Shown one piece after another: positions 503 to 54,100 of a stretch of 64,000 bases of DNA. Under the pieces are notes generated by a model. It did not search any database, was not told where the DNA came from, and was given only the letters and a program-made list of their open reading frames with translations. The stretch comes from a candidate division FCPU426 bacterium (lineage in GTDB: Bacteria > Oederibacteriota > JAAXVQ01 > JAUVAV01), in the NCBI GenBank assembly GCA_040756875.1, contig JBFLYH010000002.1, forward strand, positions 981,246 through 1,045,245. Direction: 5' to 3'. The position numbers were made by a program, and so were the translations under genes. Position 1 is the first letter of the stretch; every line of letters begins with the position of its first letter.

Positions 503-1510
503 ATGACGCGAGCCGCCGTTTTTCACATTTGCCTTCTGGGCCTGGCGCTGGCTTTCAGCCGGCCGGGGCTGGCTTTGGACGTTCGTTTCGGCGATCCGGC
601 GGGCACCACGCCCGCGGCCAGCAGCGCCCTGCTGCCGCCGCTGACCTGCAAACTGCAGACACTGACGCCCAAACCGCGCCAGGGAGAGCCGGTTCAATTC
701 AGCCTCACTTTGCAGCTCCAGCCCGGCGTGGTGGCGGACTCGGGCACGACCCTGACCAGCCTGGGCGAGTGGGAAGTGCTGGGCGTGGAGCGCGGGCCGG
801 CGCAGGACCAGGAAGAAAAGCGCGTGCGCCAGGACCGGCTGACCCTGGTCACCTTTGCCAGCGGCAAAGTGGAAGTTCCGGCCTGGATCCAGACCTTCCG
901 GCTGGCCGACGGCCAGCCCGGCGAATTCCGGACCGCGCCCTTGACCGTGAACGTGGAGCCCGTGCCGCACCACTCCGGAGACCGGCCGGGTGAAATCCGC
1001 GGCTTGAAGCCGCAGCGCGGCCTGTTTGTCGCCTGGCCGTGGCTGTTGGCCGCCGCGCTCGCCTCGCTGGCCGTGGCGGCCGGATGGTGGTGGAGCCAGC
1101 GGCAAAAACCCGGCGCGCTGCCGTTCGCTGCGCCCAGCCGTCCGCCGGCCGAAGTCGCGCGGGAGCAGTTGGAGCGTCTGCGGCAGGCGGATTGGCCCGG
1201 CCAGGGTAACTTTAAAGCTTACTACGTCGAATTGTCGGCCATCTTGCGCTTGTATGTGGAAGGATGCTTTCAAGTGCCGGCGCTCGATCAAACCACGCCC
1301 GAGCTGCTCAAGGCTCTGAAACACGCGCGCGCCAAACTGCCGGACATCAATGCCAGCCGCGAGGTGTTGAACCGCAGCGACCTTGTGAAATTCGCCAAGT
1401 GGCTGCCCACGGCCGCCGAAGCCCAGGCGGACTGGCAGGCGGTCTGGGATATGGTTGAGCGCACGGAACCCAAGCCCGAGCCGGCGGAGGAACCCCATGC
1501 AGCTGGCTAA
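503..1510 (+). CDS. Bat-operon membrane protein: signal peptide, BatD-like N-terminal region, one TM helix, DUF4381-like C-terminal region
   Basis: 335-aa ORF; hydrophobic N-terminus, central TM (WPWLLAAALASLAVAAGWWW); sits between DUF58 and BatA genes. Confidence 0.5.
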   Translation: MTRAAVFHICLLGLALAFSRPGLALDVRFGDPAGTTPAASSALLPPLTCKLQTLTPKPRQGEPVQFSLTLQLQPGVVADSGTTLTSLGEWEVLGVERGPAQDQEEKRVRQDRLTLVTFASGKVEVPAWIQTFRLADGQPGEFRTAPLTVNVEPVPHHSGDRPGEIRGLKPQRGLFVAWPWLLAAALASLAVAAGWWWSQRQKPGALPFAAPSRPPAEVAREQLERLRQADWPGQGNFKAYYVELSAILRLYVEGCFQVPALDQTTPELLKALKHARAKLPDINASREVLNRSDLVKFAKWLPTAAEAQADWQAVWDMVERTEPKPEPAEEPHAAG

Positions 1511-2486
1511 TCCGTGGTGGCTGCTCCTGCTTCTGCCCGTGGCCGGACTAGCCTGGCTGCTGTGGCTGCGCAGCCGGCGGCCCGAGGGCTTCAAGTACGC
1601 GGAGCTGTCCTCCTGGCGAAAACTGGGCCCAGCGCAGGCCTTCGGCCCCGATGAGGCGATCTTCGCGCTTTTTATTCTCGGTTTGTGCCTGCTGGTCATG
1701 GCCCTGGCCAGGCCCCAAGCCGGCGTGAAAACCGAGGAAGTCACGGGCCGGGGCGTGGACATCATGCTTTGCCTGGACACCTCGGGCTCCATGCGGGCCG
1801 TGGATTTCCAGCCGCAGAACCGGCTGGGTGCGGCCAAGGAAACGGCCATCCAGTTCATCCAGGCCCGGCCGCGCGACCGCCTGGGTCTGGTGGTGTTCGG
1901 CGGCGCAGCCCAGACTGTCTGCCCGCTGACCGCGGACAAAAAGGCGCTGCTGGATTTCATGCGGCAGGTGCGGATCGACATGACCGGCGTGGACGGCACG
2001 GCGCTCGGATCGGCCGTGGCCCTGGCTGCGGACCGGCTGCGTTCCTCGAAAGCGGCCAGCAAGGTGATATTGCTTTTGACCGACGGCCGCAACAACACAG
2101 GGTCGGTTTCGCCGCTGACTGCAGCTAAAGCCGCGGCTGCGCTGGGGATCAAGATTTATGCGGTCGGCGCCGGGTCGCCCGGCGGCGGGCTGATTCCGGT
2201 CCAGGACCCGGTTTTCGGCACGCGCTACGCCCGCATGGAGCAGGACTTGGATGAGGACACATTGCGCGCCCTGGCCGCGGAAACCGGAGGCAGTTATTTC
2301 CGGGCCAAGGACAGCGAGGGACTCAAACGGATTTTCGAGCGCATCAATCACATGGAAAAAAGCGATTACCAGATCAAGGCCTTCACCCATTACCGGGACT
2401 TGTATTTCAACTGGCTGGCCGCTGGCTGGTTGCTGCTGGCCGCGGCCCTGGGTCTGCGTTACGCGGTTTTCAGGCGGTTGCCGTAG
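1497..2486 (+). CDS. batA: BatA-like von Willebrand factor A domain membrane protein
   Basis: Start moved to in-frame ATG at 1497 (MQLANPWWLLLL...); N-terminal TM pair then vWA domain with MIDAS-like DTSGSM. Confidence 0.8.
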   Translation: MQLANPWWLLLLLPVAGLAWLLWLRSRRPEGFKYAELSSWRKLGPAQAFGPDEAIFALFILGLCLLVMALARPQAGVKTEEVTGRGVDIMLCLDTSGSMRAVDFQPQNRLGAAKETAIQFIQARPRDRLGLVVFGGAAQTVCPLTADKKALLDFMRQVRIDMTGVDGTALGSAVALAADRLRSSKAASKVILLLTDGRNNTGSVSPLTAAKAAAALGIKIYAVGAGSPGGGLIPVQDPVFGTRYARMEQDLDEDTLRALAAETGGSYFRAKDSEGLKRIFERINHMEKSDYQIKAFTHYRDLYFNWLAAGWLLLAAALGLRYAVFRRLP

Positions 2487-2488
2487 AG

Positions 2489-2615
2489 AAGGGGGGATGG
2501 CGGCCTTTCACCCGCGGGACGGCGGCCATTGGGTAGGCCGCCTCGGCTTGCGAAAAACGATGCCTACCAGTGTTTTTCGCAAACGCCCGCTGGCGAAAGG
2601 CCGCCATCCCCATGA
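2489..2615. repeat. Palindromic intergenic element E1: 17-bp perfect outer inverted repeat enclosing two internal hairpins
   Basis: Arms GGGGATGGCGGCCTTTC (2493-2509) and GAAAGGCCGCCATCCCC (2595-2611); inner hairpins GGCGGCC/GGCCGCC and GCGAAAAAC/GTTTTTCGC; homologous to the element at 23945-24070. Confidence 0.7.
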
Positions 2616-2642: not shown

Positions 2643-4436
<1,794 letters not shown>

Positions 4437-4449
4437 GCAAGAGGACAGC

Positions 4450-22624: not shown

Positions 22625-23352
22625 CCGTCAAACCCAAAGACCGCCTGTTCATCGCCCTGGATGTGGATGATTTGAAGGCCGCGGACCATCTTATGAGCCG
22701 CATGCAGGGCGTGGTGTCACAGTACAAGCTGGGCGCGCAGCTGCTCACGGCCGCCGGACCGGAGGCCGTGATGCACGTGCGCCGCCGCGGCTTCGGCGTC
22801 TTTTACGACGCCAAGTTCCACGACATCCCGCGCACGGTCGGCGCGTCCGTGGCCGCGGCCTGCCGCATCGGCGCCACCATCGTCAACGTGCACGCCGGCG
22901 GCGGCAAGGACATGATGGCCGCCGCAGCCCAGGCGGCCCGCGACGTGGCGCACAAACTGCGCCAGCCCCGCACCCTGGTGCTGGGCGTGACCGTGCTGAC
23001 GTCGCTCACCCAGGCCAACCTGACCCGGGAGCTGGGCGTGCGGCGCCGCCTGCAGTCGCAGGTGGTGCAGCTCGCGCGCCTGGCGAAAGCCTCGGGATTG
23101 GACGGCGTGGTCGCCAGCCCGCAGGAGATCGCGGCCGTGCGCCGGGCCTGCGGCCGGGATTTCGTGATCCTCACACCGGGCATCCGGCCGGCCGGGGCCA
23201 GCCTCAATGACCAGAAACGCACCCTGACCCCGGGCCAGGCCATGGCCGCGGGCGCCGATTACCTGGTGGTCGGCCGTCCGGTGTACGAGGCGCGCGACCC
23301 GCTGGCCGTGGTGCGGTCCATTTTCAGCGAAATGGAGGAGTTCATGCGATGA
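22621..23352 (+). CDS. pyrF: orotidine-5'-phosphate decarboxylase
   Basis: ATGA-coupled; FIALDVDD and DAKFHDIP motifs. Confidence 0.85.
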   Translation: MTVKPKDRLFIALDVDDLKAADHLMSRMQGVVSQYKLGAQLLTAAGPEAVMHVRRRGFGVFYDAKFHDIPRTVGASVAAACRIGATIVNVHAGGGKDMMAAAAQAARDVAHKLRQPRTLVLGVTVLTSLTQANLTRELGVRRRLQSQVVQLARLAKASGLDGVVASPQEIAAVRRACGRDFVILTPGIRPAGASLNDQKRTLTPGQAMAAGADYLVVGRPVYEARDPLAVVRSIFSEMEEFMR

Positions 23353-23942
23353 CACCCGCGCAAGTGCAAACCCTGTTCGAAGAGTCCGGCGCCCTGCTCA
23401 GCGGGCACTTCCAGCTGACCTCGGGCAACCATTCCAACCGCTACCTGCAGTGCGCCCTGGTCACCCAGCATCCGGGGCATGCCGCGAGCCTGGCCGACGC
23501 CCTGGCCGGACGGTTCAAGGACCAGGACGTGGACGTGGTCCTGGGCCCGGCCGTGGGCGGCATCGTGCTGGCCCAGGAAGTGGCGCAAGCCCTGTACCGC
23601 CAGGGTCGCCGGCAGGTGCGCGCCATTTTTTGCGAACGCGTGGACGGCCGCATGGCCCTGCGCCGCGGGTTTTCGCTCTCGTCCGGGGAACGGGTGCTGG
23701 CCGTGGAGGACGTGGTGACCACCGGCGGTTCGGTGCAGGAAGCCGTGGCCCTGGCCCAGGCCGCGGGCTGCACGGTGGTCGGCGTGGGCTGCCTGGTGGA
23801 CCGCAGCTCCGCGCCGCCGCAACTCGGCGCGCCCCTGGTCTCGCTGCTCAAGGTGAACGCCGATTTGTTTCCGCCGGACAACTGCCCCTTGTGCCGACAG
23901 GGCCTGCCGGCCATCAAGCCCGGCAGCCGGGGATTAAAATGA
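23349..23942 (+). CDS. pyrE: orotate phosphoribosyltransferase
   Basis: ATGA-coupled; PRPP-binding motif VLAVEDVVTTGGS. Confidence 0.85.
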   Translation: MTPAQVQTLFEESGALLSGHFQLTSGNHSNRYLQCALVTQHPGHAASLADALAGRFKDQDVDVVLGPAVGGIVLAQEVAQALYRQGRRQVRAIFCERVDGRMALRRGFSLSSGERVLAVEDVVTTGGSVQEAVALAQAAGCTVVGVGCLVDRSSAPPQLGAPLVSLLKVNADLFPPDNCPLCRQGLPAIKPGSRGLK

Positions 23943-23944
23943 AA

Positions 23945-24070
23945 GGGATGGGTCGAAGATTCACCCTAGGGCGGACGGCGGTTTGCTCTGCAAACCGCCT
24001 CGGATCGAAAAATCCCCTTGCCAATGCGGTTTTTCTCAACGCCGCCTGCGGGTGAATCTTCGACCCGTGT
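23945..24070. repeat. Palindromic intergenic element E2, homologous to E1
   Basis: 17-bp perfect IR GGGTCGAAGATTCACCC (23950-23966) / GGGTGAATCTTCGACCC (24050-24066); inner hairpin GGCGGTTTG/CAAACCGCC (23977-23999); shares blocks GGGATGG, TTCACCC, GACGGCGG, CCGCCTCGG, CGAAAAA, GTTTTTC, CAACGCC with E1. Confidence 0.7.
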
Positions 24071-24116: not shown

Positions 24117-25034
24117 ATGCCTTCCCGCATGAAGAGCGCGCTCTGGTACCTGGCGCTCACGTTCATCCTCAGCTGGAGCTTGGTGGGCGTTGCGTTCTAC
24201 GGGCTCAAACTCCACCTCAACCAAGGCGCCGGGCTGGCGGTCGCGGTCCTTTATATGTTCATGCCCCTGTGCGCGGTTGTCCTCGTGCGCAAATTCATCC
24301 TGCGCCAGCCTGTCCGGGAAGCGCTGGGCCTGTCCTTCAAGCTCAATGCCTGGTGGCTTGTGGCCTGGCTGCTGCCGCTGGTTTTAAGCGTGGGCGCCTT
24401 GTTCGCTTCACTCCTGGTCCCGGGCGTGGAATGGTCCTGGTCCATGGAGGGGATGATCCAGCGCTTTGGCAGCCAGTTGACGCCGGCCCAGATCGAAGCT
24501 ATGCGCCAGCAAACCGCGGCTTTGCCCTTGCATCCCTTGTGGCTGGGGATGATCCAGGGGCTCCTGGCCGGCGTAACGGTCAATGCCGTGGCCGGGTTCG
24601 GCGAGGAAGCCGGGTGGCGGGGCCTCCTGCAGCGCGACCTGCAATTCTTGGGATTCTGGCGCTCATCCATCTTCATCGGGCTGGTTTGGGGCATCTGGCA
24701 CGTGCCGATCATTCTGCTGGGCCACAATTATCCCCAGCATCCTCGCGAAGGCGCTTTTTACATGGCGTATTTCACCATTTTAATGGCCCCCTTGTTCGCT
24801 TATATCCGCGCCCGCACCCGCTCCGTGGTGGCCGCGGCCGTCATGCACGGCACGCTCAATGCCGTGGCAGGCATTTCCTTCATGACCCTGGCGGGCGGGA
24901 GCGATTTGTCCGTGGGCCTGACCGGCCTGGCCGGCCTGGCGGTGCTGGCCGGCGCCAACGGCCTGCTGTGGGTGTACGACCGGTGGTTGAGCAAAGACCC
25001 GCTGATTCCGAATTACAGAACCTGGGTTTTCTAG
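24117..25034 (+). CDS. CPBP-family intramembrane metalloprotease (CAAX protease-like)
   Basis: Start at ATG 24117 (RBS AAGGAG); motifs EEAGWRG, FxxxH (WGIWHVP), HxxxN (MHGTLNA). Confidence 0.7.
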   Translation: MPSRMKSALWYLALTFILSWSLVGVAFYGLKLHLNQGAGLAVAVLYMFMPLCAVVLVRKFILRQPVREALGLSFKLNAWWLVAWLLPLVLSVGALFASLLVPGVEWSWSMEGMIQRFGSQLTPAQIEAMRQQTAALPLHPLWLGMIQGLLAGVTVNAVAGFGEEAGWRGLLQRDLQFLGFWRSSIFIGLVWGIWHVPIILLGHNYPQHPREGAFYMAYFTILMAPLFAYIRARTRSVVAAAVMHGTLNAVAGISFMTLAGGSDLSVGLTGLAGLAVLAGANGLLWVYDRWLSKDPLIPNYRTWVF

Positions 25035-26130: not shown

Positions 26131-27456
26131 GTGCCTGAATCTTTCTCCGCCAGACAATTAATCGGTTGCGCCCTGGCTATCGGGCTGCTGCTTACAGGCT
26201 GCCGCGGCGCCACCCAGGCCCCGGCCTGGTCCCAGCGCTCCCTGATCGCCGGCCCTGAAATCCTCGTCCGTCTCTGGCGCAAAACCCCCTTCACGCAAGT
26301 GCAGCTCTCCTGGGACGGCACGCCGCTGCTGGCGGTGGATGCCAACGGAGAAATCATCCCCCTGCCGCAGGTCAACCGGCTCTATTTCTACCAGCGCGGC
26401 GAGCAGGTGGCCCTGGCATTCAAAGCCGGCCGCAAGGCGGCCCGCGAAGCCCAGGCGTACTCCTCGCTGGTGCTGCGGGTCCCGGGATCCGAGGTCAAGG
26501 CGTTCACGGTGTTGATCCCGGAATACGGCCGGCGGCGCAACTACGGCGCCCAAGCCGTGAGCCTGTCCGTGAAATACGGGCACTTGGCGCTGATCAACCA
26601 TCTGCCGCTGGAAATGTACCTGGCGCGCGTGCTGCCCGAGGAAATGGATCCGGAGCATTTCACGCTGGAGGCGCTCAAAGCCCAGGCCGTGGTGGCGCGC
26701 ACCTGGTCCCTGACCAATCTCAACCGGCACGCCCGCTATGGGTATCATTTTTGCGACGGGCCCCACTGCCAGGCCTACCGCGGCCGCAAGCGGGTGTCCG
26801 GCCGGGCCGAGGACGCGGTGAAGATGACCCTGGGCGAAGTGGTGCTCTCCGGCGGCGAGCCGGCCGAGGCGTTTTACCACAGCACCTGCGGGGGCAACAC
26901 GGCGTTCGTGGAAGACGTATGGCCCGGGGCCCGGCTTCCGTATCTGAGGCGCGTCGAGGACCGCTTCCGCCCCGGTCAGCGCGCCTACTGCGCCCATTCC
27001 CCCTATTCACGCTGGACGCTGTGGACTTCGCTCCGGCACGTGGAGCGGGTATTGAAACGCCGCCAGGCGATCGCCGCCGAAACCAATCTGCTGGACGTCA
27101 AAGTGGACGCGGTCAACCGTTCCGGCCGCGTGCTCAGGATTTGGCTGGCCACAGACCGCGGCGAATTGACACTGGGCGGGGAGTCCTTTCGCGCGTGGCT
27201 GAACGAGGAGTTCGGGCGAAAGCTCCTGAGCACGTTTTATTCCATCAGGGTGGAGGACGGGCAGTTTAAGCTGGAGGGGAAAGGCCTGGGACACGGGGTC
27301 GGCATGTGCCAATGGGGCGCCCGGGGCATGGCCCAGCTCGGTTTTTCCTACCAGGACATCCTACAGCATTACTTTCCGGGGACCACGATCGGCCGGTTCG
27401 AGGGGGCGGCCGTGGAACCCGGGGCGACCACGGTGAATTCGCACGCCGGGAAGTAG
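26131..27456 (+). CDS. SpoIID/LytB-domain protein (putative peptidoglycan-acting lipoprotein)
   Basis: GTG start at 26131; lipobox LLTGC; SpoIID/LytB blocks HSTCGGNTAFVEDVW and GHGVGMCQWGARGMA. Confidence 0.7.
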   Translation: MPESFSARQLIGCALAIGLLLTGCRGATQAPAWSQRSLIAGPEILVRLWRKTPFTQVQLSWDGTPLLAVDANGEIIPLPQVNRLYFYQRGEQVALAFKAGRKAAREAQAYSSLVLRVPGSEVKAFTVLIPEYGRRRNYGAQAVSLSVKYGHLALINHLPLEMYLARVLPEEMDPEHFTLEALKAQAVVARTWSLTNLNRHARYGYHFCDGPHCQAYRGRKRVSGRAEDAVKMTLGEVVLSGGEPAEAFYHSTCGGNTAFVEDVWPGARLPYLRRVEDRFRPGQRAYCAHSPYSRWTLWTSLRHVERVLKRRQAIAAETNLLDVKVDAVNRSGRVLRIWLATDRGELTLGGESFRAWLNEEFGRKLLSTFYSIRVEDGQFKLEGKGLGHGVGMCQWGARGMAQLGFSYQDILQHYFPGTTIGRFEGAAVEPGATTVNSHAGK

Positions 27457-29621
27457 CGGGGCGTGCGGGTTACCTGCAGGGGCGAACGCGAACGGCGGGC
27501 CGATCCCATGGGCGCCACTTTCAGGTTCACCTGATACCGGCCGGCCGGAAGGCCCGGCGGCACTGCCAGCTGATAAATTTCCTCCAGATTGCCGGGCGCG
27601 TAGGCCCACGAGGGCGGGGGCCAGTAACCCAGGCGCCGGACCGCTTTCCAGGGCCGGCGCAGGGTTCCGGAAACGGACGGCTGGATCCAAAAATACACCA
27701 CCCATTGTTCGCCGTTGGGCGCGGGCAGAAATTGCCAGCGCAAGGAAACAGTCAGCACGGAATCCAAACCCTCCGAAGCGGCCGGCGGCTGCACGCCGGC
27801 TGCCACCAGGCGCATGGGTCCTGCCGTCTCCAGCGGAGACGGGGTTTTGGCCGGGCCCAGGCCTGATTCGCCCCAGACCGGGCCGCGGGCCACGGGAAAC
27901 GGTTCAACGTGATAGGCTGAAAACCGCCGGTTGGTTCCGTCCGGGCCGTTCACTAAATAGCCTCCATCCTCCATTGCCAATAATCTGAAGCTTTGCAGAA
28001 AGTATTCCCAAGCCGGAGAGGACAGTTTGGGCCTGGCCAAGACCACCACCGGTTTTCCCGCCGACACCTGTTGGCCGAGTTCCCGGTTCCAGGCGGCCCA
28101 TTTGCGCCAGGCCTTGCCTTTTTCCGCAGCGCGGGCGCCGGCGGCAGCCGGCCAGGGTTTGGACAGAGGTTGCAGCAGCAAATCCGGACGCACGCCTTTG
28201 CGGGTTTGCAGCAACAAAGGCAGCAGCCCCTGCTGCATGTCCGGAAAAACCACGATGGCGGATTCGGGCAGGCTTTTCATCCCGCGGCCGACTTCGTCCA
28301 CGTCGGAAATCCGGGGGCCGGATGCCGCTTCCGGCCATCCCTGCAGCAACATCAGCACCGGGGCCAGGGCCACCAGGCTCATGCCGATCCAGGTGGGCTT
28401 GAGACGCATGCCCAGGCTCAAGCGGTGGTCGCCCTGCCCCAGCACGGTCAGGACATACTGCAGGGCTTCCAAACCCAGCCAGGGGCCGGCCATGGCCAGC
28501 CCCAGCATCACGTCCTCGCTTTGCCGCAGGGGCAGCAGCAGCAAACCCGCCAGGGAACAGACGATCAGAAGCGCCAGGAACTGGCGTCCCGGCAGGTTGA
28601 TTTCCTCGGTTACGCGCAGCGGGGTTTTGAGAAACAACCGGCGCAGGTTGGCGGCCAGCCCCAGGCCGGCCAAGGCCCAGGAAAAAACGGGAAAATGCCG
28701 CAGCCAGACGGACCAGACCGTCGACCAAGGTCCCTGCGGGGCAGCAGGGGGGGACCCGTGCGACTGGAGCTGGGTCAGGAAGCCCTGCCAGGCGTGAAGG
28801 TTCAGGGCCGGGCCGAGCGGCTGGAAATGATCCGTGTTGATGAAGACGTGATCCGCAGTCAAGCGCAGGGGCAGGTACAGATAGGGCAGCAAGGCGCCAA
28901 CCAGGGCCGCGGCCACGGCCTGGCCGTACATCCAGGCCTGCACGCGTTGGCGGGGGAGCCCCAGCACCAACCCCAGGAGCAGGGCCGAGGCTGCCCAAGG
29001 AAGCAAGCCCAGGGATTGGGAAGCCGTGGCGCCCAATAAAGCGGCCCAGGCCGTGAGGCGCCAGACGGACACCGGGTGACGGCCGGGCGTGAGCAGACCC
29101 AGCGTTAAGTACACGCCAACAGCCAACAGCCAAAGGTGGAAGGACATCGGGCCGATGCGCAAGCCGGCCTGCCAGACCGGAAAAAACCAAAAACAGGACA
29201 AAGCCGTGGCCAGGGAGACGAAGGGCGGAAACAACAGGCGGCGCGCGATCAAATAAACGAACAGGCAGGTTCCGGAGCCGAACAGCAGGCTGAGCAGGCG
29301 GTACCGCCACAGCTCTTCGCCCAAGGGCAGCACGACGGACAGGAACTTGGCGCTGAGCAGATACAACGGATAGCCCGGAAAACGGACCACGCCCAGCGTG
29401 CTCGCGCCCAGCACCCATTCGGCCTGGCCGCCGGCCCACGAGCTTGTGGCCAGCCAGGGCCAGGAAGTCAGCAAGGGCAGGAAAAAAGCCAGCAGGCCGA
29501 ACCAGCCGTCGGGTTTAAGGAAGAAAATCGTCTGATCCACCCGTTCCGGGCGAGAGGGTGCGTACACGAGCAGCAAGCCTCCGCGGAGCCTGAGCCGGTG
29601 ACGGCGTACGCTCCAGAGCAT
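27369..29621 (-). CDS. DUF2723-like polytopic membrane protein (GT-C-fold glycosyltransferase-like)
   Basis: Only supported minus-strand gene; 750 aa, N-terminal half strongly hydrophobic with LGVVRFPGYPL motif; start uncertain (alternative GTG at 29567 with GGAGG SD). Confidence 0.6.
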   Translation of the reverse strand: MLWSVRRHRLRLRGGLLLVYAPSRPERVDQTIFFLKPDGWFGLLAFFLPLLTSWPWLATSSWAGGQAEWVLGASTLGVVRFPGYPLYLLSAKFLSVVLPLGEELWRYRLLSLLFGSGTCLFVYLIARRLLFPPFVSLATALSCFWFFPVWQAGLRIGPMSFHLWLLAVGVYLTLGLLTPGRHPVSVWRLTAWAALLGATASQSLGLLPWAASALLLGLVLGLPRQRVQAWMYGQAVAAALVGALLPYLYLPLRLTADHVFINTDHFQPLGPALNLHAWQGFLTQLQSHGSPPAAPQGPWSTVWSVWLRHFPVFSWALAGLGLAANLRRLFLKTPLRVTEEINLPGRQFLALLIVCSLAGLLLLPLRQSEDVMLGLAMAGPWLGLEALQYVLTVLGQGDHRLSLGMRLKPTWIGMSLVALAPVLMLLQGWPEAASGPRISDVDEVGRGMKSLPESAIVVFPDMQQGLLPLLLQTRKGVRPDLLLQPLSKPWPAAAGARAAEKGKAWRKWAAWNRELGQQVSAGKPVVVLARPKLSSPAWEYFLQSFRLLAMEDGGYLVNGPDGTNRRFSAYHVEPFPVARGPVWGESGLGPAKTPSPLETAGPMRLVAAGVQPPAASEGLDSVLTVSLRWQFLPAPNGEQWVVYFWIQPSVSGTLRRPWKAVRRLGYWPPPSWAYAPGNLEEIYQLAVPPGLPAGRYQVNLKVAPMGSARRSRSPLQVTRTPRYFPACEFTVVAPGSTAAPSNRPIVVPGK

Positions 29622-29645: not shown

Positions 29646-29702
29646 AGCAGACAGCAGCAAGGTGAAAGGGCAGCCACTGCGTTCACCTTGCTGCTGTCTG
29701 CT
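29646..29702. repeat. 21-bp perfect inverted repeat with 15-nt loop
   Basis: AGCAGACAGCAGCAAGGTGAA (29646-29666) / TTCACCTTGCTGCTGTCTGCT (29682-29702); direct repeat AGCAGACAG also at 29625. Confidence 0.8.
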
Positions 29703-30212: not shown

Positions 30213-32618
30213 GTGACCGGTATTTTCGTGTGGTGGTTGTTGATCACAATCATGGGGCTGGCTGTTGTCCCGATCGCGTTCCGGGTTTTTCCGTTTCTTC
30301 CTGACCGGGGATATGCGTTTTCCAAACCCTTGGGGCTGGTGCTGGTCGGGCTGCTGACCTGGTGGATCGGGCAGGTGCATTTTTCAGTCCTTACCATTCT
30401 CCTGGCATTCGGGCTGATCGCCGGCCTGTCGTATTGGCTGTGGGTCCGCTCGGCCGCGGAGTTCCGTTCCCTGCTGTCCGAGCGGCTCGGGTTGATCGTG
30501 GCGGTGGAACTGTTTTTCGCGGTTCTCTTCCTCCTTTTCTGCTGGTTCCGCATGTACAACCCGGACATCATCGGCACCGAAAAATTCATGGACCTGGCGT
30601 TTCTCAATTCGCTCTCCCGCGCCACGTCGTTTCCGCCGCCGGACCCGTGGATGGCCGGCTCGAAATTTTTCATCAGCTACTATTATTTCGGCTACCTGCT
30701 CATGGCCATTCTGCTCCGCCTGTCGGCCGTGGCGCCGGCCGTGGGCTTCAATCTTTCCCTGGGCATGCTGTTCGCGCTCGCCGGGATCAGCACGTTCGGC
30801 GTGCTGTACAACCTCACGCGGCGCCTGAGCGCGGGCTTTGGCGGCTGGGCGCTGATCTACCTGATCGGCAATCTCGACGGGTTCAGGCAGGTGCTCGCCA
30901 CCAAAAGCATCGCCAGCTTCAACTGGTGGACGCCGTCGCGCGTCATCCCCGACACCATCAACGAGTTTCCGTTTTTCTCCTTTCTCCTCGGGGACATGCA
31001 TCCGCACATGCTGTCCATCCCCGTGGTCATGCTGACCCTGGGGTTCACGCTGAACCAGCTCAAATCCATGAACCGCGAGCCGAACTTCCGCGAGCCGGAG
31101 CAGCTTGCGACTACGCTGCTCTGGGGCCTGCTGATCGGGGCGCTGGGGTTCGCCAACAGCTGGGACCTGCCCACCACCTTCGGGCTGGCAGGGGCGGCGT
31201 TTCTGCTGCAGCAGTTGCGTTTCAAGCCGCGCCTGGCTGACCTGCCCTGGCGGCAGTGGGGGCTGGGCCTGGCGCTGATGCTGGGCGCCATGTTCGTGCC
31301 GTACCTGCCCTTTTATTTCCACTTCCACAGCCAGGCCAAAGGCCTTGCCTGGACCACGCAGAACACCCGGTTGGGGGATTTTCTGCTCCTCTTCGGCGTG
31401 TTCGCCTATCTCGGCCTGACCTTTCTCCTGGCCCGATACCATGCCTGGTTTTTGGCCGTGCTGTCCCGTCCGCAGGCCGCCTCCGGGGAAGGCAAGGCCG
31501 CCAAAGCCAAAGCCAGCCGTTTCTGCCCGCAGTGCGGGCATACGCTGCGCGAAGGCAAGCGCATTTGCGGCCAATGCGGGTACCAGACGGCGGGCGGAGG
31601 GTCTGAACAGGAATCTTCGCTCCTGTTGCGGCCCGTGGAAGAAACGCCGGAATGGCTGCGCGGGCTGTTCCTGTTCCTGCTGCAGCCCGTGGCGCGCTGG
31701 CGCCAGGGCCGGGGCGCGGCCCTGATCACAGCCGGCGTGCTCGCGGCGGCGGTCGGCGGCGCGCTGGTGAAAGGCCTCTTTTTCTCCACGCCGGGCAATC
31801 CCGCGCCCGTGTTCCTCGGCATCATGATTTTCGCGCTGGCGGCCGCCACCCTGCTGCTGTTCGCCCGCGTGGACAAGCCGGAGACAGTGTTCGCCCTGCT
31901 GCTGCTGGCCACGGCCCTGGCGCTGTTCATGGGCTGTGAAGTGCTGCATATCAACGACACCTTCAATCCGCCGCTGGACAGGATGAACACGGTTTTCAAG
32001 TTTTACTACCAGGCCTGGTTCCTGCTGGGCATCGCCGGCGTCTACGGCGTTTTCTGGACCTGGAAGTATTCGCTGCGCCACGCGAACCTCAAGGTGGTCT
32101 GGCTGTCGGGCCTGGCCCTGCTGCTGGCCGCGAGCCTGGTTTATCCTTACGCGGCCGCGGGCGTCAAGACCAACCGGTTTGCCACCCTCCCGACCCTGGA
32201 CGGCTCGGCATACCTGAATCAGGCGTACCCGGCCGACCGCGCGGGCATCGAATGGCTGCGCCGTTCGGTGGCCGGCAATCCCGTGGTGCTGGAAGCCACG
32301 GGCGGCGAATATACGGATTTTGCCCGCGTGTCCACGTTCACGGGCCTGCCCACGGTCCTGGGCTGGGCCGGCCACGAACTGCAGTGGCGCGGGAACTACG
32401 ACGAACCCGGCCGGCGGATTCCGGACATCGACACGCTCTACGGCTCTTCGGACGTGGCGGCCACTCAGGCCCTGCTGGACAAATACCAGATTACTTACGT
32501 TTTTGTCGGCACCCTGGAGCGGCAAAAATACCCGGAAGAAGCGCTGGCGAAATTCACCCAGTTGATGGACGTGGCGTTCGAACACCCCGGCGGCGTGCGG
32601 ATCTACCGCCGGCGGTGA
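30213..32618 (+). CDS. YYY-motif polytopic membrane protein (DUF2298 / TIGR03662-like) with inserted zinc ribbon
   Basis: GTG start; 801 aa; FISYYYFGYLL motif; CPQCG...CGQCG insertion; many TM helices. Confidence 0.65.
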   Translation: MTGIFVWWLLITIMGLAVVPIAFRVFPFLPDRGYAFSKPLGLVLVGLLTWWIGQVHFSVLTILLAFGLIAGLSYWLWVRSAAEFRSLLSERLGLIVAVELFFAVLFLLFCWFRMYNPDIIGTEKFMDLAFLNSLSRATSFPPPDPWMAGSKFFISYYYFGYLLMAILLRLSAVAPAVGFNLSLGMLFALAGISTFGVLYNLTRRLSAGFGGWALIYLIGNLDGFRQVLATKSIASFNWWTPSRVIPDTINEFPFFSFLLGDMHPHMLSIPVVMLTLGFTLNQLKSMNREPNFREPEQLATTLLWGLLIGALGFANSWDLPTTFGLAGAAFLLQQLRFKPRLADLPWRQWGLGLALMLGAMFVPYLPFYFHFHSQAKGLAWTTQNTRLGDFLLLFGVFAYLGLTFLLARYHAWFLAVLSRPQAASGEGKAAKAKASRFCPQCGHTLREGKRICGQCGYQTAGGGSEQESSLLLRPVEETPEWLRGLFLFLLQPVARWRQGRGAALITAGVLAAAVGGALVKGLFFSTPGNPAPVFLGIMIFALAAATLLLFARVDKPETVFALLLLATALALFMGCEVLHINDTFNPPLDRMNTVFKFYYQAWFLLGIAGVYGVFWTWKYSLRHANLKVVWLSGLALLLAASLVYPYAAAGVKTNRFATLPTLDGSAYLNQAYPADRAGIEWLRRSVAGNPVVLEATGGEYTDFARVSTFTGLPTVLGWAGHELQWRGNYDEPGRRIPDIDTLYGSSDVAATQALLDKYQITYVFVGTLERQKYPEEALAKFTQLMDVAFEHPGGVRIYRRR

Positions 32619-34747: not shown

Positions 34748-35704
34748 ATGCGTCAGCAGGAAAAAGTTGCGGCGATTGTGTTGGGTGCCAGCGTCGTGGT
34801 TTTGGCGGTCGCCATTTTCTTCGGTTTGCAGCGCGGCCGCGACGGCAACGCCAAACCCGGCGGCCAGGCCAACCCCATGGCCGGCGGCGACCGGGGCAAG
34901 GCGTCCGGGCAGTTGTGGGACCCGCGCGGTGTGGCCGTGGACGCCAAGGGCTTCGTGTACGTGGTGGATTCGAGCAACCACCGCATCCAGAAGTTCGACG
35001 CCGAAGGCAAGTTCGTGGCCAAGTGGGGGCAGGAAGGGCAGGGCGACGGCGAGTTCAAGACGCCGGGCGGCATCGACGTGGGGCCGGACGGGAACGTGTA
35101 CGTGGCGGACACCTGGAACCACCGGATACAAAAGTTCGACAACCGGGGCAAGTTCCTCAAGCAGTGGCCGGGCGAGGGCGGGTTCTGGGGGCCGCGTGAC
35201 GTAGCCGTGGATTCCAAAGGCTTCGTGTACGTGACGGACACGGGCAACCGCCGCATCCAGAAGTTCACCGGCGACGGCCAGTTCGTCAAGATGTGGGGGC
35301 AGAAAGGCTCGGGCCCCAACGACTACGACGAGCCCTTCGGCATTAAAGCCGACGACAAGGATTTGCTGTATATCTGCGACCGCCTCAATTTCCGCATTCA
35401 GGTCTGCGACACCGAGGGGCGCCTGGTCCGTTCCTGGCCCGTGGACGGCTGGCAGAAGGAACAGTTCTTCATGGAGCCCTACCTCTCCATCGACAACCGC
35501 CGCGACCGGGTGTACGTGACCGACCCGACCAAGCACCGCGTGCTGGTGTACGACCGCCAGGGCGGATTCAAGCAGCACCTGCTGCAGGACCCGGCCACCC
35601 AGCAGGCGTTTTCCACGCCCCTGGGCGTGGCGGTGAACGAGGAAACCGGCATGATTTATATCACGGATATGACGGCCAACCGGCTGTATAAAATCCAGCC
35701 TTAG
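34748..35704 (+). CDS. NHL-repeat beta-propeller protein, N-terminal membrane anchor
   Basis: Repeated blocks GVAVDxxGxVYVxDxxNHRIQKF; N-terminal TM helix. Confidence 0.75.
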   Translation: MRQQEKVAAIVLGASVVVLAVAIFFGLQRGRDGNAKPGGQANPMAGGDRGKASGQLWDPRGVAVDAKGFVYVVDSSNHRIQKFDAEGKFVAKWGQEGQGDGEFKTPGGIDVGPDGNVYVADTWNHRIQKFDNRGKFLKQWPGEGGFWGPRDVAVDSKGFVYVTDTGNRRIQKFTGDGQFVKMWGQKGSGPNDYDEPFGIKADDKDLLYICDRLNFRIQVCDTEGRLVRSWPVDGWQKEQFFMEPYLSIDNRRDRVYVTDPTKHRVLVYDRQGGFKQHLLQDPATQQAFSTPLGVAVNEETGMIYITDMTANRLYKIQP

Positions 35705-35715
35705 GAGGGATGAAC

Positions 35716-36828
35716 ATGGCCACCAAACGCAAACCAAGCCGGACGCAAACCAAGCCGGCGGCGCGCAAATCCGCGGCGGCGCGCAAGCCTGCTGGCGCCG
35801 CACTCAAAACCAGCGCGGCCAAAGCCGCCGCCGGACGCAAACCCGCCCACCGCGAAAGCCATAAAACCGCCTCCGGCGGCAACCGCGGCCTGGTGTTTTT
35901 CGGCGCGATCGCCGTGCTGGTCGTGGCCATGGCCGTGGTCGCAAAACTCAGGCAGGGGCCGCCGGTGAAGCTCCTGCCCGCGGAGGTGCTGGGCACTTAC
36001 ACCGCGGCGGACAACGCCGCCGGCGCCCTGTCGTCGCCGCGCGGGATCGCCGTGACGCGTGAAGGGGAAGTGGTGGTGGCTGATCTGGGCAACCACCGGA
36101 TCGTGGCTTTTGCGCCGGACGGCAGCGTGGCCGACACCTGGGGCCGCAAGGGCACGGCCGCCGGCGAGTTCAACGAGCCGTCGGGCGTGGCCGTGGACAG
36201 CCGAGGCGACTTCTACGTGGCCGACACCTGGAACGGACGCATCCAAAAATTCTCCCCCCGCGGCGAGTACTTCGGCGAAATCACCTCGAAAACCGGGAAC
36301 TTCTATTCGCCGCGCAACGTGGCCGTGGACAGCCATGGGTTCGTGTACGTGGCGGACACGGGCAATTCCTGCGTGAAGAAATTCGACACGGACGCCAACC
36401 TGGTGAAACGCTGGGGCGAATACGGCTCCGGGCACGACCGGTTCCAGGAAACCTTCGGCCTGGCCGTGGACGCGGCCGGCCAGGTGTACGTGGGCGACGC
36501 GGGCAACCGCCGCATCAAAATTTACACCAGCGACGGCAAGTTCCTGCGCGACCTGCGGGTCAAGGGCTGGCAGAGCGGGGTGGGCTGGCCCATGCTGGCG
36601 CTGGACGCGCAGGGCCGGGTTTACGCCACGGACGTGCAGCACAACATGGTATGGATTTACAGCCGCGAGGGCAAGTACCTGGGGAGCTTCGGCAACCAGC
36701 CGGGCAAGGAGCTGTTCTCCTCGCCGCTGGGGATCGCCATCGGGCCGGACGGCAGCGTGTACGTGTCGAACATGAACCGCGGCGAGATTCTGAAACTCAA
36801 AGGCTTGGCCCCGGAGCCGCCGAAATAG
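35716..36828 (+). CDS. NHL-repeat beta-propeller protein, basic N-terminus and membrane anchor
   Basis: Start at ATG 35716 (SD spacing); NHL blocks (GIAVTREGEVVVADLGNHRIVAF...). Confidence 0.75.
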   Translation: MATKRKPSRTQTKPAARKSAAARKPAGAALKTSAAKAAAGRKPAHRESHKTASGGNRGLVFFGAIAVLVVAMAVVAKLRQGPPVKLLPAEVLGTYTAADNAAGALSSPRGIAVTREGEVVVADLGNHRIVAFAPDGSVADTWGRKGTAAGEFNEPSGVAVDSRGDFYVADTWNGRIQKFSPRGEYFGEITSKTGNFYSPRNVAVDSHGFVYVADTGNSCVKKFDTDANLVKRWGEYGSGHDRFQETFGLAVDAAGQVYVGDAGNRRIKIYTSDGKFLRDLRVKGWQSGVGWPMLALDAQGRVYATDVQHNMVWIYSREGKYLGSFGNQPGKELFSSPLGIAIGPDGSVYVSNMNRGEILKLKGLAPEPPK

Positions 36829-36876
36829 GGCGCGCCCGGGCATCGTGGTCATCCCCGAGGGATGAGGAGGGACGGC

Positions 36877-37923
36877 ATGGCAACAGCAAGCGACAAACGG
36901 AAGCCGAAAAAGACAGCGGCCCAGGGAAGCAAAGCGGCCACCCGGGCCAGACAGGCCAAAAGCCAGGCGGCGATTCCCGCCCCGGTTGCGGCCTCCGCGC
37001 CCGCGGCGCCGCCCCGGGCTGCCAAACCGGGCTTGCCGCACGGAATCATTCTGGGCGTTTTGCTGGCCCTGGTGGTTTTGGTCAGCGTGGAGGTCGTGAT
37101 CCTCATGAAGGACAAGGCGGACCGGAAGCGCATTCTGCGCGTGGTGGAAGTGGTGCCGGAACGCGGCGGGCCGCCGGACATGCCGGGCAAGTTCTGGGGG
37201 CCGTACCAGGTCAAGGTCAACGAACAGGCGGGCCGCTTGGCCCTGGTCGACCACGCGTTCAACAAGGTCGTGCTGTGGGACCTGGCCACCAAGAAGCACG
37301 TGGTCGACGTCAACGCCGCCTTGCTGGGACGGGAGCAGTTCGTTCCAAAGGACGTCGATGTGGCCGATGACGGCGACTATTACATCCTCGACCACTCTGA
37401 CATGACGGTCAAACGGTTCTCGGCCCAGAACCAGCTGGTCCAGCAGTGGAAGATTCCGGAGAGCGTCAGCCTGACGGCCGGCAAGGACCGCGATGTGTAC
37501 GTGCTGGACGGCAGGGCCCAGGAGATCGTCCATTATCAAAACGACGGCACCGAACTCGGGCGTTTCGGCAAGGGTAAGTTGAAAAACGGCCTGTTGATGG
37601 ACACGGATGAGGCCGGCAACATCTACGTGGTGGATTCCGGCTACAACGGCATGGTGGTTTTCTCGAAGGCGGGCAAGCACCTGTATTCCTGGCCGATCAA
37701 GGAAGTGAAGCCCTTGCAGATGTCGCGCATGGCGGCGGTCAACAACCAAGTGTATTTCTACGACCTGGTCAACAACAACGGGATCATCAGAGTGTACACC
37801 CCCAAAGGCCGCCTGGCGTGGGATATCGGCCCGCAGCGCACAGAATCATTTGACGTCGGCCGCTCGGGGACGGTGTACATGTCCGGCAACGACGGCATCG
37901 TCATTCAGCAAATCGAGAAGTGA
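36877..37923 (+). CDS. membrane-anchored beta-propeller-like protein (divergent NHL-like paralog)
   Basis: Start at ATG 36877 (RBS GAGGAGGGA); N-terminal basic region and TM; repeated YVLD/YVVD blocks. Confidence 0.5.
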   Translation: MATASDKRKPKKTAAQGSKAATRARQAKSQAAIPAPVAASAPAAPPRAAKPGLPHGIILGVLLALVVLVSVEVVILMKDKADRKRILRVVEVVPERGGPPDMPGKFWGPYQVKVNEQAGRLALVDHAFNKVVLWDLATKKHVVDVNAALLGREQFVPKDVDVADDGDYYILDHSDMTVKRFSAQNQLVQQWKIPESVSLTAGKDRDVYVLDGRAQEIVHYQNDGTELGRFGKGKLKNGLLMDTDEAGNIYVVDSGYNGMVVFSKAGKHLYSWPIKEVKPLQMSRMAAVNNQVYFYDLVNNNGIIRVYTPKGRLAWDIGPQRTESFDVGRSGTVYMSGNDGIVIQQIEK

Positions 37924-51156: not shown

Positions 51157-54100
51157 ATGGTACTGCGCAAGCGGCAAAGCTCCATAACCCTGTTGCTTTC
51201 CTTATTATTAGTCATACCGCCCGGTACGCTGCAAGCCAAGAGCCAGCCCGAACCAACCGAGCCTTCCACCCGCCCTGAGCGCCTGACTCCCGAAATCGTC
51301 GTCCTGGTGCCGGATGTGCTGGATTCGGCCAAGACCTTAGCCAATGCCAGGCAGCGGTTGATCAAACGCGGCTTGAAATCCCGGGACGTGGTCGTGACCG
51401 CTGAACAGCCGGGGTTCAGTCGTTCGGGCGGGTTGGACCAGCAGGCGCGGCAGCTGGAAAAAATCCTGATTGATCTGAAAATCCGTCAGCCAAGCGCACG
51501 GTTGCACGTGGTCGGCAAGGGCAGCGGCGGCTTGGTGGTCCGGCAGTACCTGGCGAGGCAGGCGGGCCTCGGGCCACAGGCAGTGACCGTGGAAAGCGCG
51601 GTCGGCTTGGGCGTGCCGCACCACGGCCGCTGGTGGGCGGGCGTGGCCAGCAGCCTGGGCGCCAAGTCGCAGGCCCTGGCTGACCTGGCGCCGGGTTCTG
51701 CGTTTTTAAACCAGCTTAACCAGCCCATTGAAGCGCGCCGGGCCGAGGTCAGGCGCGTGCAGGGTGTGCTGGCCAGCCTGCGCCAGCCGAACCTGCGGGC
51801 CCAGGTCCGGGGCAAACTGTCAGCCATTGAAAGCCAGCAGGCGGACATACGCGAATCCGTGGAGCGGGCTCTGCACTTTCCACAGCGCGCCGCTTTGAGT
51901 CCTGATGACCAGAAACGCCGCCAGGAAGCGGAACGGTTCAAGGCGAAACTCAACCGCCTTCCGGCCGCGGAAGCGCGGCACCAAGCCGCGTCCCTGGCCG
52001 CTGCCAGCCAGCGCCAGGTTCTGGCCGCGGAAAAATTCGCAGGACAATCCCTCCCTTGGCAGGCGCCGGCCCGGCAATCAACCCGTACGGCCGAAGAGGC
52101 CCTGGTTCGCGCCCAACAAACCCTGCTGGAAAAACTGTCCCAGCCCCAGGCCAAGTTGCCGGCCGGATTCCAGCCGCCGAAGACCCAAGCCCAGCCAGGG
52201 CAATGGCTTTCCGTTTTGCAGGCCCTGGAGCACAGCAGCCAGGCTGCGGCTGAAAAAGCCGCCAGCCAGGCTGGCGGCCTGCAAAAACAATTCGCGTCCC
52301 TGGATTTCGAAGGGCTCGAAGCCCGTTTAAAAAACGCCGGCACGGAGGCAGCGGGGCGCCTGCCTGCCGACTTGCTGCAACTCAAGCCCCAGCACATGGC
52401 CAGGGACCTGGAGCGCGCCGCGCGCAAATATGAAACCGCGGCTGCGTTGGAAGCTGCCTGGCGGCAGAGCCAGGCCGGCAAAGAGCAGTGGCTCGATCAA
52501 GTGGAGCGGTTGACCCAGGTCGCGGCCAAACAGCAACTGGCCCGGGACCTGGCGGCGTACGCCGCAAAGGCCGGACTTGCGCCGGCCCGGCTGCGCGCCG
52601 GGGCGGCTGAGGCAGGGGATTTGCCCGAGCGCGCCCAGGCCGCGTACCGCGCGTGGCGCCAGAAGGAAGCCGCCCTGGACCAGGCTTTTGCCGCGGCCAA
52701 GGAACAGGGGTTGGAAACAATCGTCAAACCCGAGTTTTGGAAACTGCGCGAGCGGACGGCCCAGGTGGCTGAGCGCACCCACCAGGCGATTGCGCGCGAC
52801 AGCCTAAAAGCCTGGGAAGGACTGGCAGCCCTGCGCCTGGGGCCCGCGGCCAAGGAACAGGCCATGTTCGCCCAGGCCACTGAGCACCGCCTTAACCGCG
52901 AACTGGCAGCCTGGAAGCAGGAACTGCTGAAGCCGGATTGGGAAGCGCGCTTTTCGCAGGCTGCCTCGGCCCTGAACCGCAGCCTGCCGGCGGCAGAACA
53001 GGCCGGAGCCTTGAAGCAGGCTTTAGTACAGCAGGCAGGCGCTTTGCAGTCGGCTTTGGCCGCTGTTCGTTCCGACCTGGCGGCGCGTGAGCGGCAAAGC
53101 GCCTGGGAGCGGTTGGCAGCTGACAGCCGACAGGCAGCTGCGCAGTTGCTGCAGCAACAAGCGGATCATGGCTTCGTGGCCGACGCCCTGGCTGCCGGCA
53201 ATTTCCTGGCCGCCGGCAGAAAACAGGAACAGCAACGCCTGCTGGACCTGGTCAGGCAGAATGATCCGGCTGCCAGCCGTCAGGTGGCGGTGCTGGCCCA
53301 ATTGGCGCTTCAGCGCCACGGGCTGCAGTCCAGGCTGCTGGAGACCGGCGGCCTGGATGCAGGGCCTGCCCCGCAGTTGCTGGAGCGGATCGCCGGGCAA
53401 GCCAAGGCCCTGGGGCTGAAGACCGCCCTGCCACCCAAAGCAATGGAGCACCTGGCCCAGGCCCAGGAGGAGCGGCAAAACCGCTGGAAACAACTGAACA
53501 CCAGCTGGAAGCGGCAGTGGTCGCAGGCTGTCCAGGAGGACCGCGAACGCAACCAGCCGGCCAAAGCCTGGTCAGCCTGCCAGGAGACAGTTGCCGTCAG
53601 CCGCAGCCTGGCTGTGCTGGAAGACTGCTCGGCCGCGCTTTCGCAAATGAAATCCTGGCGGGATATGGGAACCCAAGCCTCGGGCCAGCAAGGCCGCTGC
53701 CAGGTCCTGGAGCAGCAGTTGTCCGCTTGGCTGCAAACGTCCGGACTTGGCAGCCGGATCCCGGCCGTGCAATCAGCCGCAGCCGCGGCCCAGGAAAAAT
53801 TTGCGCCCGCGGCCTGGCAAGCCATTCTCAGCCAGTGCGGCCAGAAGCAGGAACAGGCAAGCGCCAGACTGCAAAACTTGAGGCGCGAACTGGCCAGGCA
53901 GCCTGAATGGATTTTGCCGCAAGTCGCCGGAGTGTCGGAACAGCTGGCTCAGGCAGCCCAGGACCCCAGCCGGATCAAGGGCTTGTTGCTCGAAATTTCC
54001 GGCTTGCGCGAGCAAACCCAAAAACACCTGACACAGGCGCGGGAACAAACCCTGGAGGCGCTCTGGCCCGGACAGGGCAAGGGGAAAGCTTCGGCCCTGG

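Follow-up and report, generated by a model that had tools for sequence, protein, structure and literature searches.

Between batA and batB in a contig of a candidate division FCPU426 bacterium lies a long palindrome, which raises the question of what kind of object it is, namely, an RNA element dedicated to batB or one copy of a dispersed DNA repeat. A preliminary description of the window (that is, the whole 64-kb stretch of DNA analyzed here) recognized a 17-bp perfect inverted repeat enclosing two perfect hairpins, took it for the first copy of a repeat family reminiscent of ERIC elements and MITEs, and proposed that it could modulate batB expression through mRNA stability or attenuation. 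Here, this element is denoted c1 and the second copy in the window c2; P1 is the closing stem, and P2 and P3 are the inner hairpins (Table 1).

Table 1. Coordinates of the two copies of the palindromic element in the window, the parts of c1 and the flanking genes
Feature	Position	Strand	Description
batA (VWA protein)	1494-2486	+	upstream of c1; product 100% identical to P0001 (candidate division FCPU426 MAG)
c1 element	2493-2611	+	119 nt; three-way junction; + strand is "forward", as set by the asymmetric core
P1 5' arm of c1	2493-2518	+	outer 17 nt GGGGATGGCGGCCTTTC perfectly paired; inner part CC + GCGGG, interrupted by two mismatches
Junction AC, P2 and junction TCGG of c1	2519-2546	+	P2: GGCGGCC-ATTGGGTA-GGCCGCC
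P3 hairpin of c1	2548-2582	+	TTGCGAAAAAC-(13-nt loop)-GTTTTTCGCAA, then junction ACG
P1 3' arm of c1	2586-2611	+	CCCGCTGGCGAAAGGCCGCCATCCCC
batB (VWA + TPR, poly-Q tract)	2643-4436	+	downstream of c1
pyrE	23349-23942	+	ends 7 nt before c2; PyrE 100% identical to FCPU426 MAG protein
c2 element	23950-24066	+	between pyrE and the Rce1-like protease gene; architecture as in c1
Rce1-like/CPBP protease gene	24117-25034	+	starts 50 nt past c2

A three-way junction in the batA-batB spacer

The gene names adopted in the preliminary description are reasonable, judging by the gene order in the orthologs of relatives, for which the precomputed Pfam annotation reads MoxR, DUF58, VWA (BatA), VWA+TPR (BatB) and BatD. 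The batA stop at 2486 and the batB start at 2643, 2646 or 2652 delimit a spacer of 156-165 nt, of which c1 fills 119 nt, leaving 6 nt on the batA side and 31-40 nt on the batB side. The assertion that the palindrome takes up almost the whole spacer was thus slightly generous, given that the part left downstream includes the ribosome-binding region; the likely batB ribosome-binding site, AAGGGA, lies outside c1 and is not sequestered in the stem. Within batB, a long CAG/CAA tract at 4054-4203, between the TPR region and the C-terminus, encodes a poly-glutamine stretch of about 40 residues with a few Lys, Glu and Asn.

The 17-bp inverted repeat is exact: the outer 17-mer is found at 2493-2509 on the + strand and its reverse complement at 2595-2611, and the bounds first assigned to the element (2489-2615) overshoot it by 4 nt on each side. 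The closing stem as a whole is a 26-nt inverted repeat that is 92% complementary (2493-2518 / 2586-2611); its arms enclose 67 nt. The two inner hairpins also pair perfectly, with the P2 stem at 2521-2527 / 2536-2542 and the P3 stem, which is longer than originally claimed, at 2548-2558 / 2572-2582. RNA folding, one of the checks proposed at the outset, yields a three-way junction with an energy of -83.7 kcal/mol (z -7.3) for the + strand and -90.0 kcal/mol (z -10.4) for the - strand, and none of the 200 shuffled sequences folds as well. A covariance model scores c1 at 137 bits in the forward orientation versus 44 bits in reverse. An independent Logan assembly from the same sample (L225, a 5.2-kb contig) shows zero mismatches over the 4151 bases that overlap the window, including the element, so c1 is not an assembly artifact.

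The structure does not correspond to any family in Rfam, which also had been suggested for the check: neither the window nor six related loci had matches at gathering thresholds, and at E<=10, the element itself drew nothing but generic hairpin matches to models of microRNA precursors. No sigma-70-like promoter was detected in or beside c1 or c2, although the promoter consensus of this phylum may differ. The proposal of attenuation finds no support either, because the stem of c1 is not followed by a U-tract and no terminator-like site lies in or beside c1 or c2.

Copies, gain, loss and inversion among relatives

The claim that c1 belongs to a repeat family stands. The second copy, 21 kb away from c1, has the same geometry, with 25-nt arms and 67 nt between them (pair I17 of a window-wide repeat search), and is recognized by a covariance model built from c1 only (49.5 bits, E=7.7e-9 in the window) as well as by a model built from four other sequences with c2 excluded (E=2e-11); no copies beyond these two were found in the 64-kb window with the covariance model. 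The fold of c2 is a three-way junction of the c1 type, with -71.9 kcal/mol for the + strand and -71.5 kcal/mol for the - strand. Its P1 arms, GGGTCGAAGATTCACCC and GGGTGAATCTTCGACCC, are unrelated to the arms of c1. The motifs common to the two copies are, in window order, GGACGGCGG ... CCGCCTCGG, GAAAAA ... GTTTTTC, CAA and CGCC, and the combination ACGGCGG-N-CCGCCTCGG has two matches in the window compared with 0.01 expected.

Another hairpin in the window, at 29646-29702, consists of a perfect 21-bp stem with a 15-nt loop and is located in the spacer between the ORFs 27369-29621 (-) and 30213-32618 (+). It was rejected as a member of the family because the covariance model scores the stem alone, with no core. 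The inner end of its stem, GGTGAA/TTCACC, is similar to the inner arms of c1 and c2, and this hairpin could be unrelated or a core-less relative.

A third member, E3, is absent from the window and lies in a contig of a relative (L216), so that, across the 64-kb window of the 1.13-Mb contig and the contigs of relatives, the family so far consists of three distinct members at two loci. The elements are 117-122 nt long, have fold z-scores between -6 and -12 for each strand of every copy, and form, in either orientation, a branched hairpin of -66 to -90 kcal/mol with 17-20 contiguous base pairs. P2 comprises 7-10 G-C-rich pairs with a loop of 3-9 nt, and all five sequences of the family retain the junction motifs CTCGR, AACGC and, at the foot of P2, GACG. 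The outer arms are mutually unrelated in c1, c2 and E3 (GGGGATGGCGGCC..., GGGTCGAAGA... and AGTCTTTGGACG..., respectively): the sequence of the outer 13-14 bp of the 25-26-bp closing stem is locus-specific, yet these segments are always self-complementary. Indels in the loops break the reading frames and rule out a conserved one, and a protein-coding element was accordingly rejected.

Both c1 and c2 are located within operons, in the same orientation as the flanking genes, and therefore are presumably transcribed. No transposase or recombinase was found among the Pfam-annotated genes of the window (about 26 of the approximately 40 ORFs) and of the loci of relatives. Several other features of the window are of note. 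Repeated units of about 90 nt within coding sequence at 34900-37700 (direct-repeat families D2-D4) are, we presume, NHL-type repeats. A 2259-residue ORF at 51157-57936, with no Pfam family at E<=1e-5, follows a gene cluster encoding PMT_2 and GT2 glycosyltransferases. Between 57000 and 64000, the G+C content drops from about 0.64 to 0.37-0.50, and that of third codon positions in ORFs from about 0.8 to 0.37-0.59; this region includes four ORFs without a Pfam match (between 58300 and 62887) and AT-rich repeats at 63163 and 63436, and may be a foreign island.

In the batA-batB gap of relatives, the element comes in both orientations. Three contigs with a BatA that is 87% identical (L122, L123 and L124) carry it forward (113.9 bits), and two with an 83% identical BatA (L125 and L126) carry it inverted (R2; 124.8 bits on the - strand versus 25.6 on the + strand). 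Among the contigs at hand, the orientation is uniform within each lineage, forward in three of three contigs of the P0002 lineage and inverted in two of two of the P0004 lineage. In L127 and L128 (BatA 66-67%), the gap is occupied by other sequence, and the covariance model finds no element there.

The batA-batB spacer is variable across the phylum; in the more distant FCPU426 relative L128 (10997-11169), it is 173 nt long, lower in GC, and contains a different 10-bp hairpin, GGTTCTTGTT...GAACAAGAAC. The batB-batD spacer, which is only 13 nt long in the window (4437-4449), holds a structured insert of about 190-210 nt in relatives (L122:6921-7133 and L125:5563-5792), with several hairpins, closed by GCGTCCAAATG... 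/ ...CATTTGGACGGC (MFE -98.5 kcal/mol, z -4.2). This insert has no match in Rfam and falls outside the c1/c2 family; its presence in the relatives therefore suggests that this FCPU426 clade accumulates varied palindromic inserts in operon spacers.

The site that follows pyrE is equally changeable. In L216 (PyrE 87% identical), E3 is found at 4032-4150, in the forward orientation, with arms of its own and compensated P2 and P3 stems. About 100 nt past E3, at 4254-4329, lies the ortholog of c2, inverted and cut by the contig end; its reverse complement agrees with c2 at 63 of 76 nt, and the alignment score is 50 in this orientation versus 10.5 in the same orientation. This Logan contig stops inside P2 of the inverted ortholog, and the contig from the sister run (L217) stops 47 nt past pyrE; these ends could reflect assembly trouble at the palindrome or population heterogeneity. 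Four contigs with an 80% identical PyrE (L218-L221) have no element, with only 67 nt between pyrE and the Rce1-like gene. Relatives with a PyrE identity of 72-74% have a different gene downstream, after gaps of 33-41 nt, and are uninformative on the ancestral state. At both loci, then, the element is gained or lost and flipped among close relatives. The outcome that the preliminary description had named as fatal to its claim, a unique element with no conserved structure in relatives, is not what is found: there is a second copy, and the structure covaries in relatives.

Searches farther afield yielded no additional members. BLASTN against plasmids and phages gave zero matches; in viral contigs, a loose core pattern had 120 chance matches, none with the flanking motifs, and a strict P3 pattern had none. 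A scan of 185,579 species genomes with the exact core pattern gave 79 matching stretches, and a scan of JGI metagenomes gave 8; none of them is in the context of the element, and those that could be identified by inspection of the surrounding sequence were coding. Because the exact pattern misses variants such as E3, these counts do not prove absence of the family elsewhere; so far, it is confined to one narrow FCPU426 clade, which has been encountered in a few metagenomes.

Covariation, rates of change and competing explanations

The structure is supported by extensive covariation. In a four-sequence MAFFT alignment, 94.2% of the cells are paired, versus 41-53% with slid partners, and 21 of the 43 pairs changed on both sides; in a five-sequence structural alignment that includes c2, the respective values are 93.5%, 40-52% and 29 of 43, with a bias toward the model because c2 was aligned by fitting to it. 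Among the three batA-batB copies (c1, L122 and L125), the arms are 63-83% identical, compared with 78-82% for the flanking coding DNA and 61-68% for third codon positions: the arms diverge at about the pace of silent sites. In the outer arms, about half of the variable positions have changed, each change mirrored in the partner arm, and where the 5' arm of L122 is 1 nt longer than that of c1, so is the 3' arm. The cores of these copies are 91-94% identical, and all differences fall in the P2 or P3 loop; across the three lineages, about 35% of the silent sites and about 29% of the loop positions differ. Pairs that are G-U on one strand only are about as frequent on one strand as on the other, which gives no sign of selection on one RNA strand.

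Our best reading, which we hold with roughly even confidence, is that c1 is a member of a small, lineage-restricted family of non-coding palindromic DNA repeats of about 119 nt, similar in kind to REP, ERIC and Correia elements, that is presumably co-transcribed as a stable hairpin in either orientation. On this reading, the element acts as a DNA repeat rather than as a dedicated regulator of batB. A repeat of the REP/ERIC/Correia/YPAL type is favored over a strand-specific RNA because the element is dispersed beside unrelated genes, is present or absent among relatives and is free in orientation.

As a DNA repeat, the element consists of a conserved asymmetric two-hairpin core (P2, P3 and the junction motifs) clamped by the 25-26-bp closing stem; it is inserted or lost at the DNA level, and its core flips between the arms. 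The flipping may result from recombination between the inverted arms or from template switching between them during replication; short spacers between inverted repeats are known to be inverted by recombination or strand switching. The complementarity of the arms could be maintained by hairpin-templated (quasipalindrome) correction and/or by near-neutral single mismatches that are compensated later. Quasipalindromes are subject to template-switch mutation, and the concerted change of the arms, including the matched length change in L122, is the expected product of hairpin-templated switching (PMC7202029). Classical transposition finds no firm support, as the arms are not common to the members and a consistent target-site duplication is not seen.

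Assuming co-transcription within the operons, the element would place a branched hairpin in the mRNA in either orientation. Any effect on batA-batB probably would be generic, with the long stem serving as an RNase III-type processing site or a barrier to decay, such that the upstream and downstream mRNA segments are uncoupled, as with Correia and ERIC elements. Whichever way it is oriented, the long stem could plausibly affect how the mRNA is processed or how stable it is.

An alternative that we consider possible but on the whole unlikely is that the element is a structured nucleic acid maintained by selection in the host, with the core as the specific binding site of a putative protein (as folded RNA, single-stranded DNA or half-sites in palindromic double-stranded DNA) and the arms as a clamp. 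The P2 and P3 stems and the junctions are identical in c1, L122 and L125, whereas the loops differ and third codon positions are only 61-68% identical; the three junction motifs recur in five of five members, and the combination of fixed stems with free loops of fixed length resembles protein-recognized palindromes. This invariance of the c1 core looks like purifying selection at the batA-batB locus, which would be unexpected of a purely selfish relic, and the fixation of stems and junctions while the loops drift points to a constraint at the sequence level that keeps a host-selected or protein-recognized junction in play. However, the core of c2 is just 83% identical between the window and L216, with stem changes included, and so is less constrained than that of c1. 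Furthermore, L218 and more distant relatives do without the element, its neighbors are functionally unrelated (the bat operon versus pyrE and the Rce1-like gene), its orientation relative to transcription is not kept, and it has no match in Rfam.

It seems rather improbable, but would be of interest if true, that the element represents an undescribed class, in which a core of about 70 nt enters local hairpins or makes an inverted target duplication, giving rise to locus-specific arms and free flipping, or else that the invariant three-way junction is the recognition site of a structure-specific protein system in FCPU426.

We are still more doubtful of insertion of the core only, whereby a mobile core of about 70-90 nt would land in a hairpin of local sequence, or build one, so that the outer arms are derived from the target. 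The locus-specific outer arms would be accounted for, and YPAL elements have been reported to target dyad symmetries (PMC2229807). The key case is the "empty" site of L218, which keeps the 17-mer GGGTAAATCCCCGACCC, a 14/17 match to the 3' arm of c2 that runs into the orthologous right flank, and which itself forms a small terminator-like hairpin. However, this is a single filled/empty pair with an ambiguous alignment, in which CGACCC alone is secure and an alternative alignment puts AAATCCC in P3, and a deletion between short GGG repeats accounts for L218 equally well. The 17-mer could indicate that the arms are partly target-derived or, equally, be a deletion scar between short repeats; the more distant relatives, with their different downstream gene, do not inform the choice.

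A mini-inverton, in which the expression of flanking genes would be altered through recombinase-mediated flipping of the 67-nt core between the arms, is quite unlikely. It would fit the long inverted arms around an asymmetric core, the difference in orientation between close relatives at both loci, and the break of the L216 contig within the inverted c2 ortholog. However, neither c1 nor c2 contains promoter-like sequence, 67 nt is very short for recombinase synapsis, and the arms are copy-specific, so they contain no common recombinase site; in addition, the orientation is uniform per lineage (3/3 and 2/2 contigs), and the annotated regions of the window encode no recombinase. Finally, a strand-specific cis-regulatory RNA for batB (a riboswitch, leader or attenuator), as envisaged in part in the preliminary description, is hardly credible: in the window and L122, the element immediately precedes batB and lies in the sense orientation, and its structure is very stable and covarying, but it is inverted at the same site in L125 and L126, is missing from the same operon in L127 and L128, has related copies next to unrelated genes, lacks a U-tract or terminator, leaves the batB ribosome-binding site accessible, belongs to no Rfam family and shows no one-strand excess of G-U pairs.

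If our best reading is correct, candidate division FCPU426 gains its first described family of small palindromic repeats, which also is a clear natural example that joins near-neutral concerted evolution of arms, a fixed branched core and flipping between near relatives. The family then would be useful as a marker in typing strains and in flagging contig breaks in FCPU426 MAGs, and would caution that covariation in palindromic DNA does not prove that an RNA is functional. In the bat operon, the element probably would do no more than affect mRNA processing or segmental stability. If the arms turn out to derive from the target, or the core to be recognized by a protein, the element would imply a novel mechanism of insertion or a novel system of DNA/RNA binding.

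Comparison with known systems

An integron attC site was rejected: the ends of the palindrome lack the AAC/GTT cores of such sites (RYYYAAC ... GTTRRRY), and the flanking genes form a conserved operon rather than cassettes. A GTAG- or CGTC-tagged REP was discarded because GTAG, found in the P2 loop of c1, is not conserved (it does not occur in L122, L125, E3 or c2) and because the stem composition, loop length and tail are unlike those of CGTC families 1-4; in CGTC REPs, the stem is 8-9 bp long and starts with A-T pairs, the loop measures 4-5 nt, and the tail is CCA (PMC3733652). The FCPU426 element resembles the CGTC-tagged REPs in having GACG (that is, CGTC) at the foot of P2 in five of five members (PMC3733652) and, more generally, resembles REP/BIME/REPIN sequences, which are short GC-rich intergenic hairpins downstream of genes and can pair into larger hairpins. 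Unlike these, the FCPU426 unit is a fixed three-way junction, not a dimer of like hairpins.

The likeness to ERIC elements and MITEs suggested in the preliminary description is borne out in part. Presence in operon spacers, presence/absence between relatives and occurrence in both orientations agree with it, and the element shares with MITEs small size, lack of coding capacity, dispersed copies and presence/absence polymorphism. In the strict sense, it is not a MITE: terminal inverted repeats shared across the family were not found. As for target-site duplications, the repeats seen at the five junctions inspected are short, offset and rich in purines (GAAG for the window, AAAAAGA for L122, AAT for L125), with no consistent length or position. 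Invertons likewise consist of inverted repeats around a segment with genome-dependent orientation, but the FCPU426 element has no promoter or nearby invertase, a 67-nt interior and copy-specific arms.

ERIC/IRU elements are 127-bp imperfect palindromes of enterobacteria with a stem-loop transcript that has been linked to mRNA stability, in an orientation-dependent manner (PMC2229807). The FCPU426 element is of similar size, also is non-coding, and occupies presumably transcribed operon spacers in either orientation with presence/absence between related genomes (PMC2229807). However, there is no sequence similarity between the two; ERIC ends are common to all copies, whereas the FCPU426 arms are locus-specific, and the FCPU426 element is GC-rich, lacks TA ends and has a branched core. 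The Correia/NEMIS elements of Neisseria differ in that their terminal inverted repeats are conserved over hundreds of copies and that they come with a TA target duplication as well as an IHF site or promoters; no such feature, conserved ends included, was found in the FCPU426 element. The two are alike in that the ends pair into a closing stem of about 24-26 bp and in co-transcription, which is presumed for the FCPU426 element; RNase III acts on Correia stems, and the long FCPU426 stem is a plausible RNase III substrate (PMC2229807). YPAL/RU-2 of Yersinia is longer (168 bp), contains internal inverted repeats and generates direct target duplications of 3-26 bp, whereas no consistent direct duplication accompanies the FCPU426 element. 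The two nevertheless have in common that they are not AT-rich, lack TA termini and show filled and empty sites between close relatives, and the insertion of YPAL at dyad symmetries also may have a parallel here (PMC2229807).
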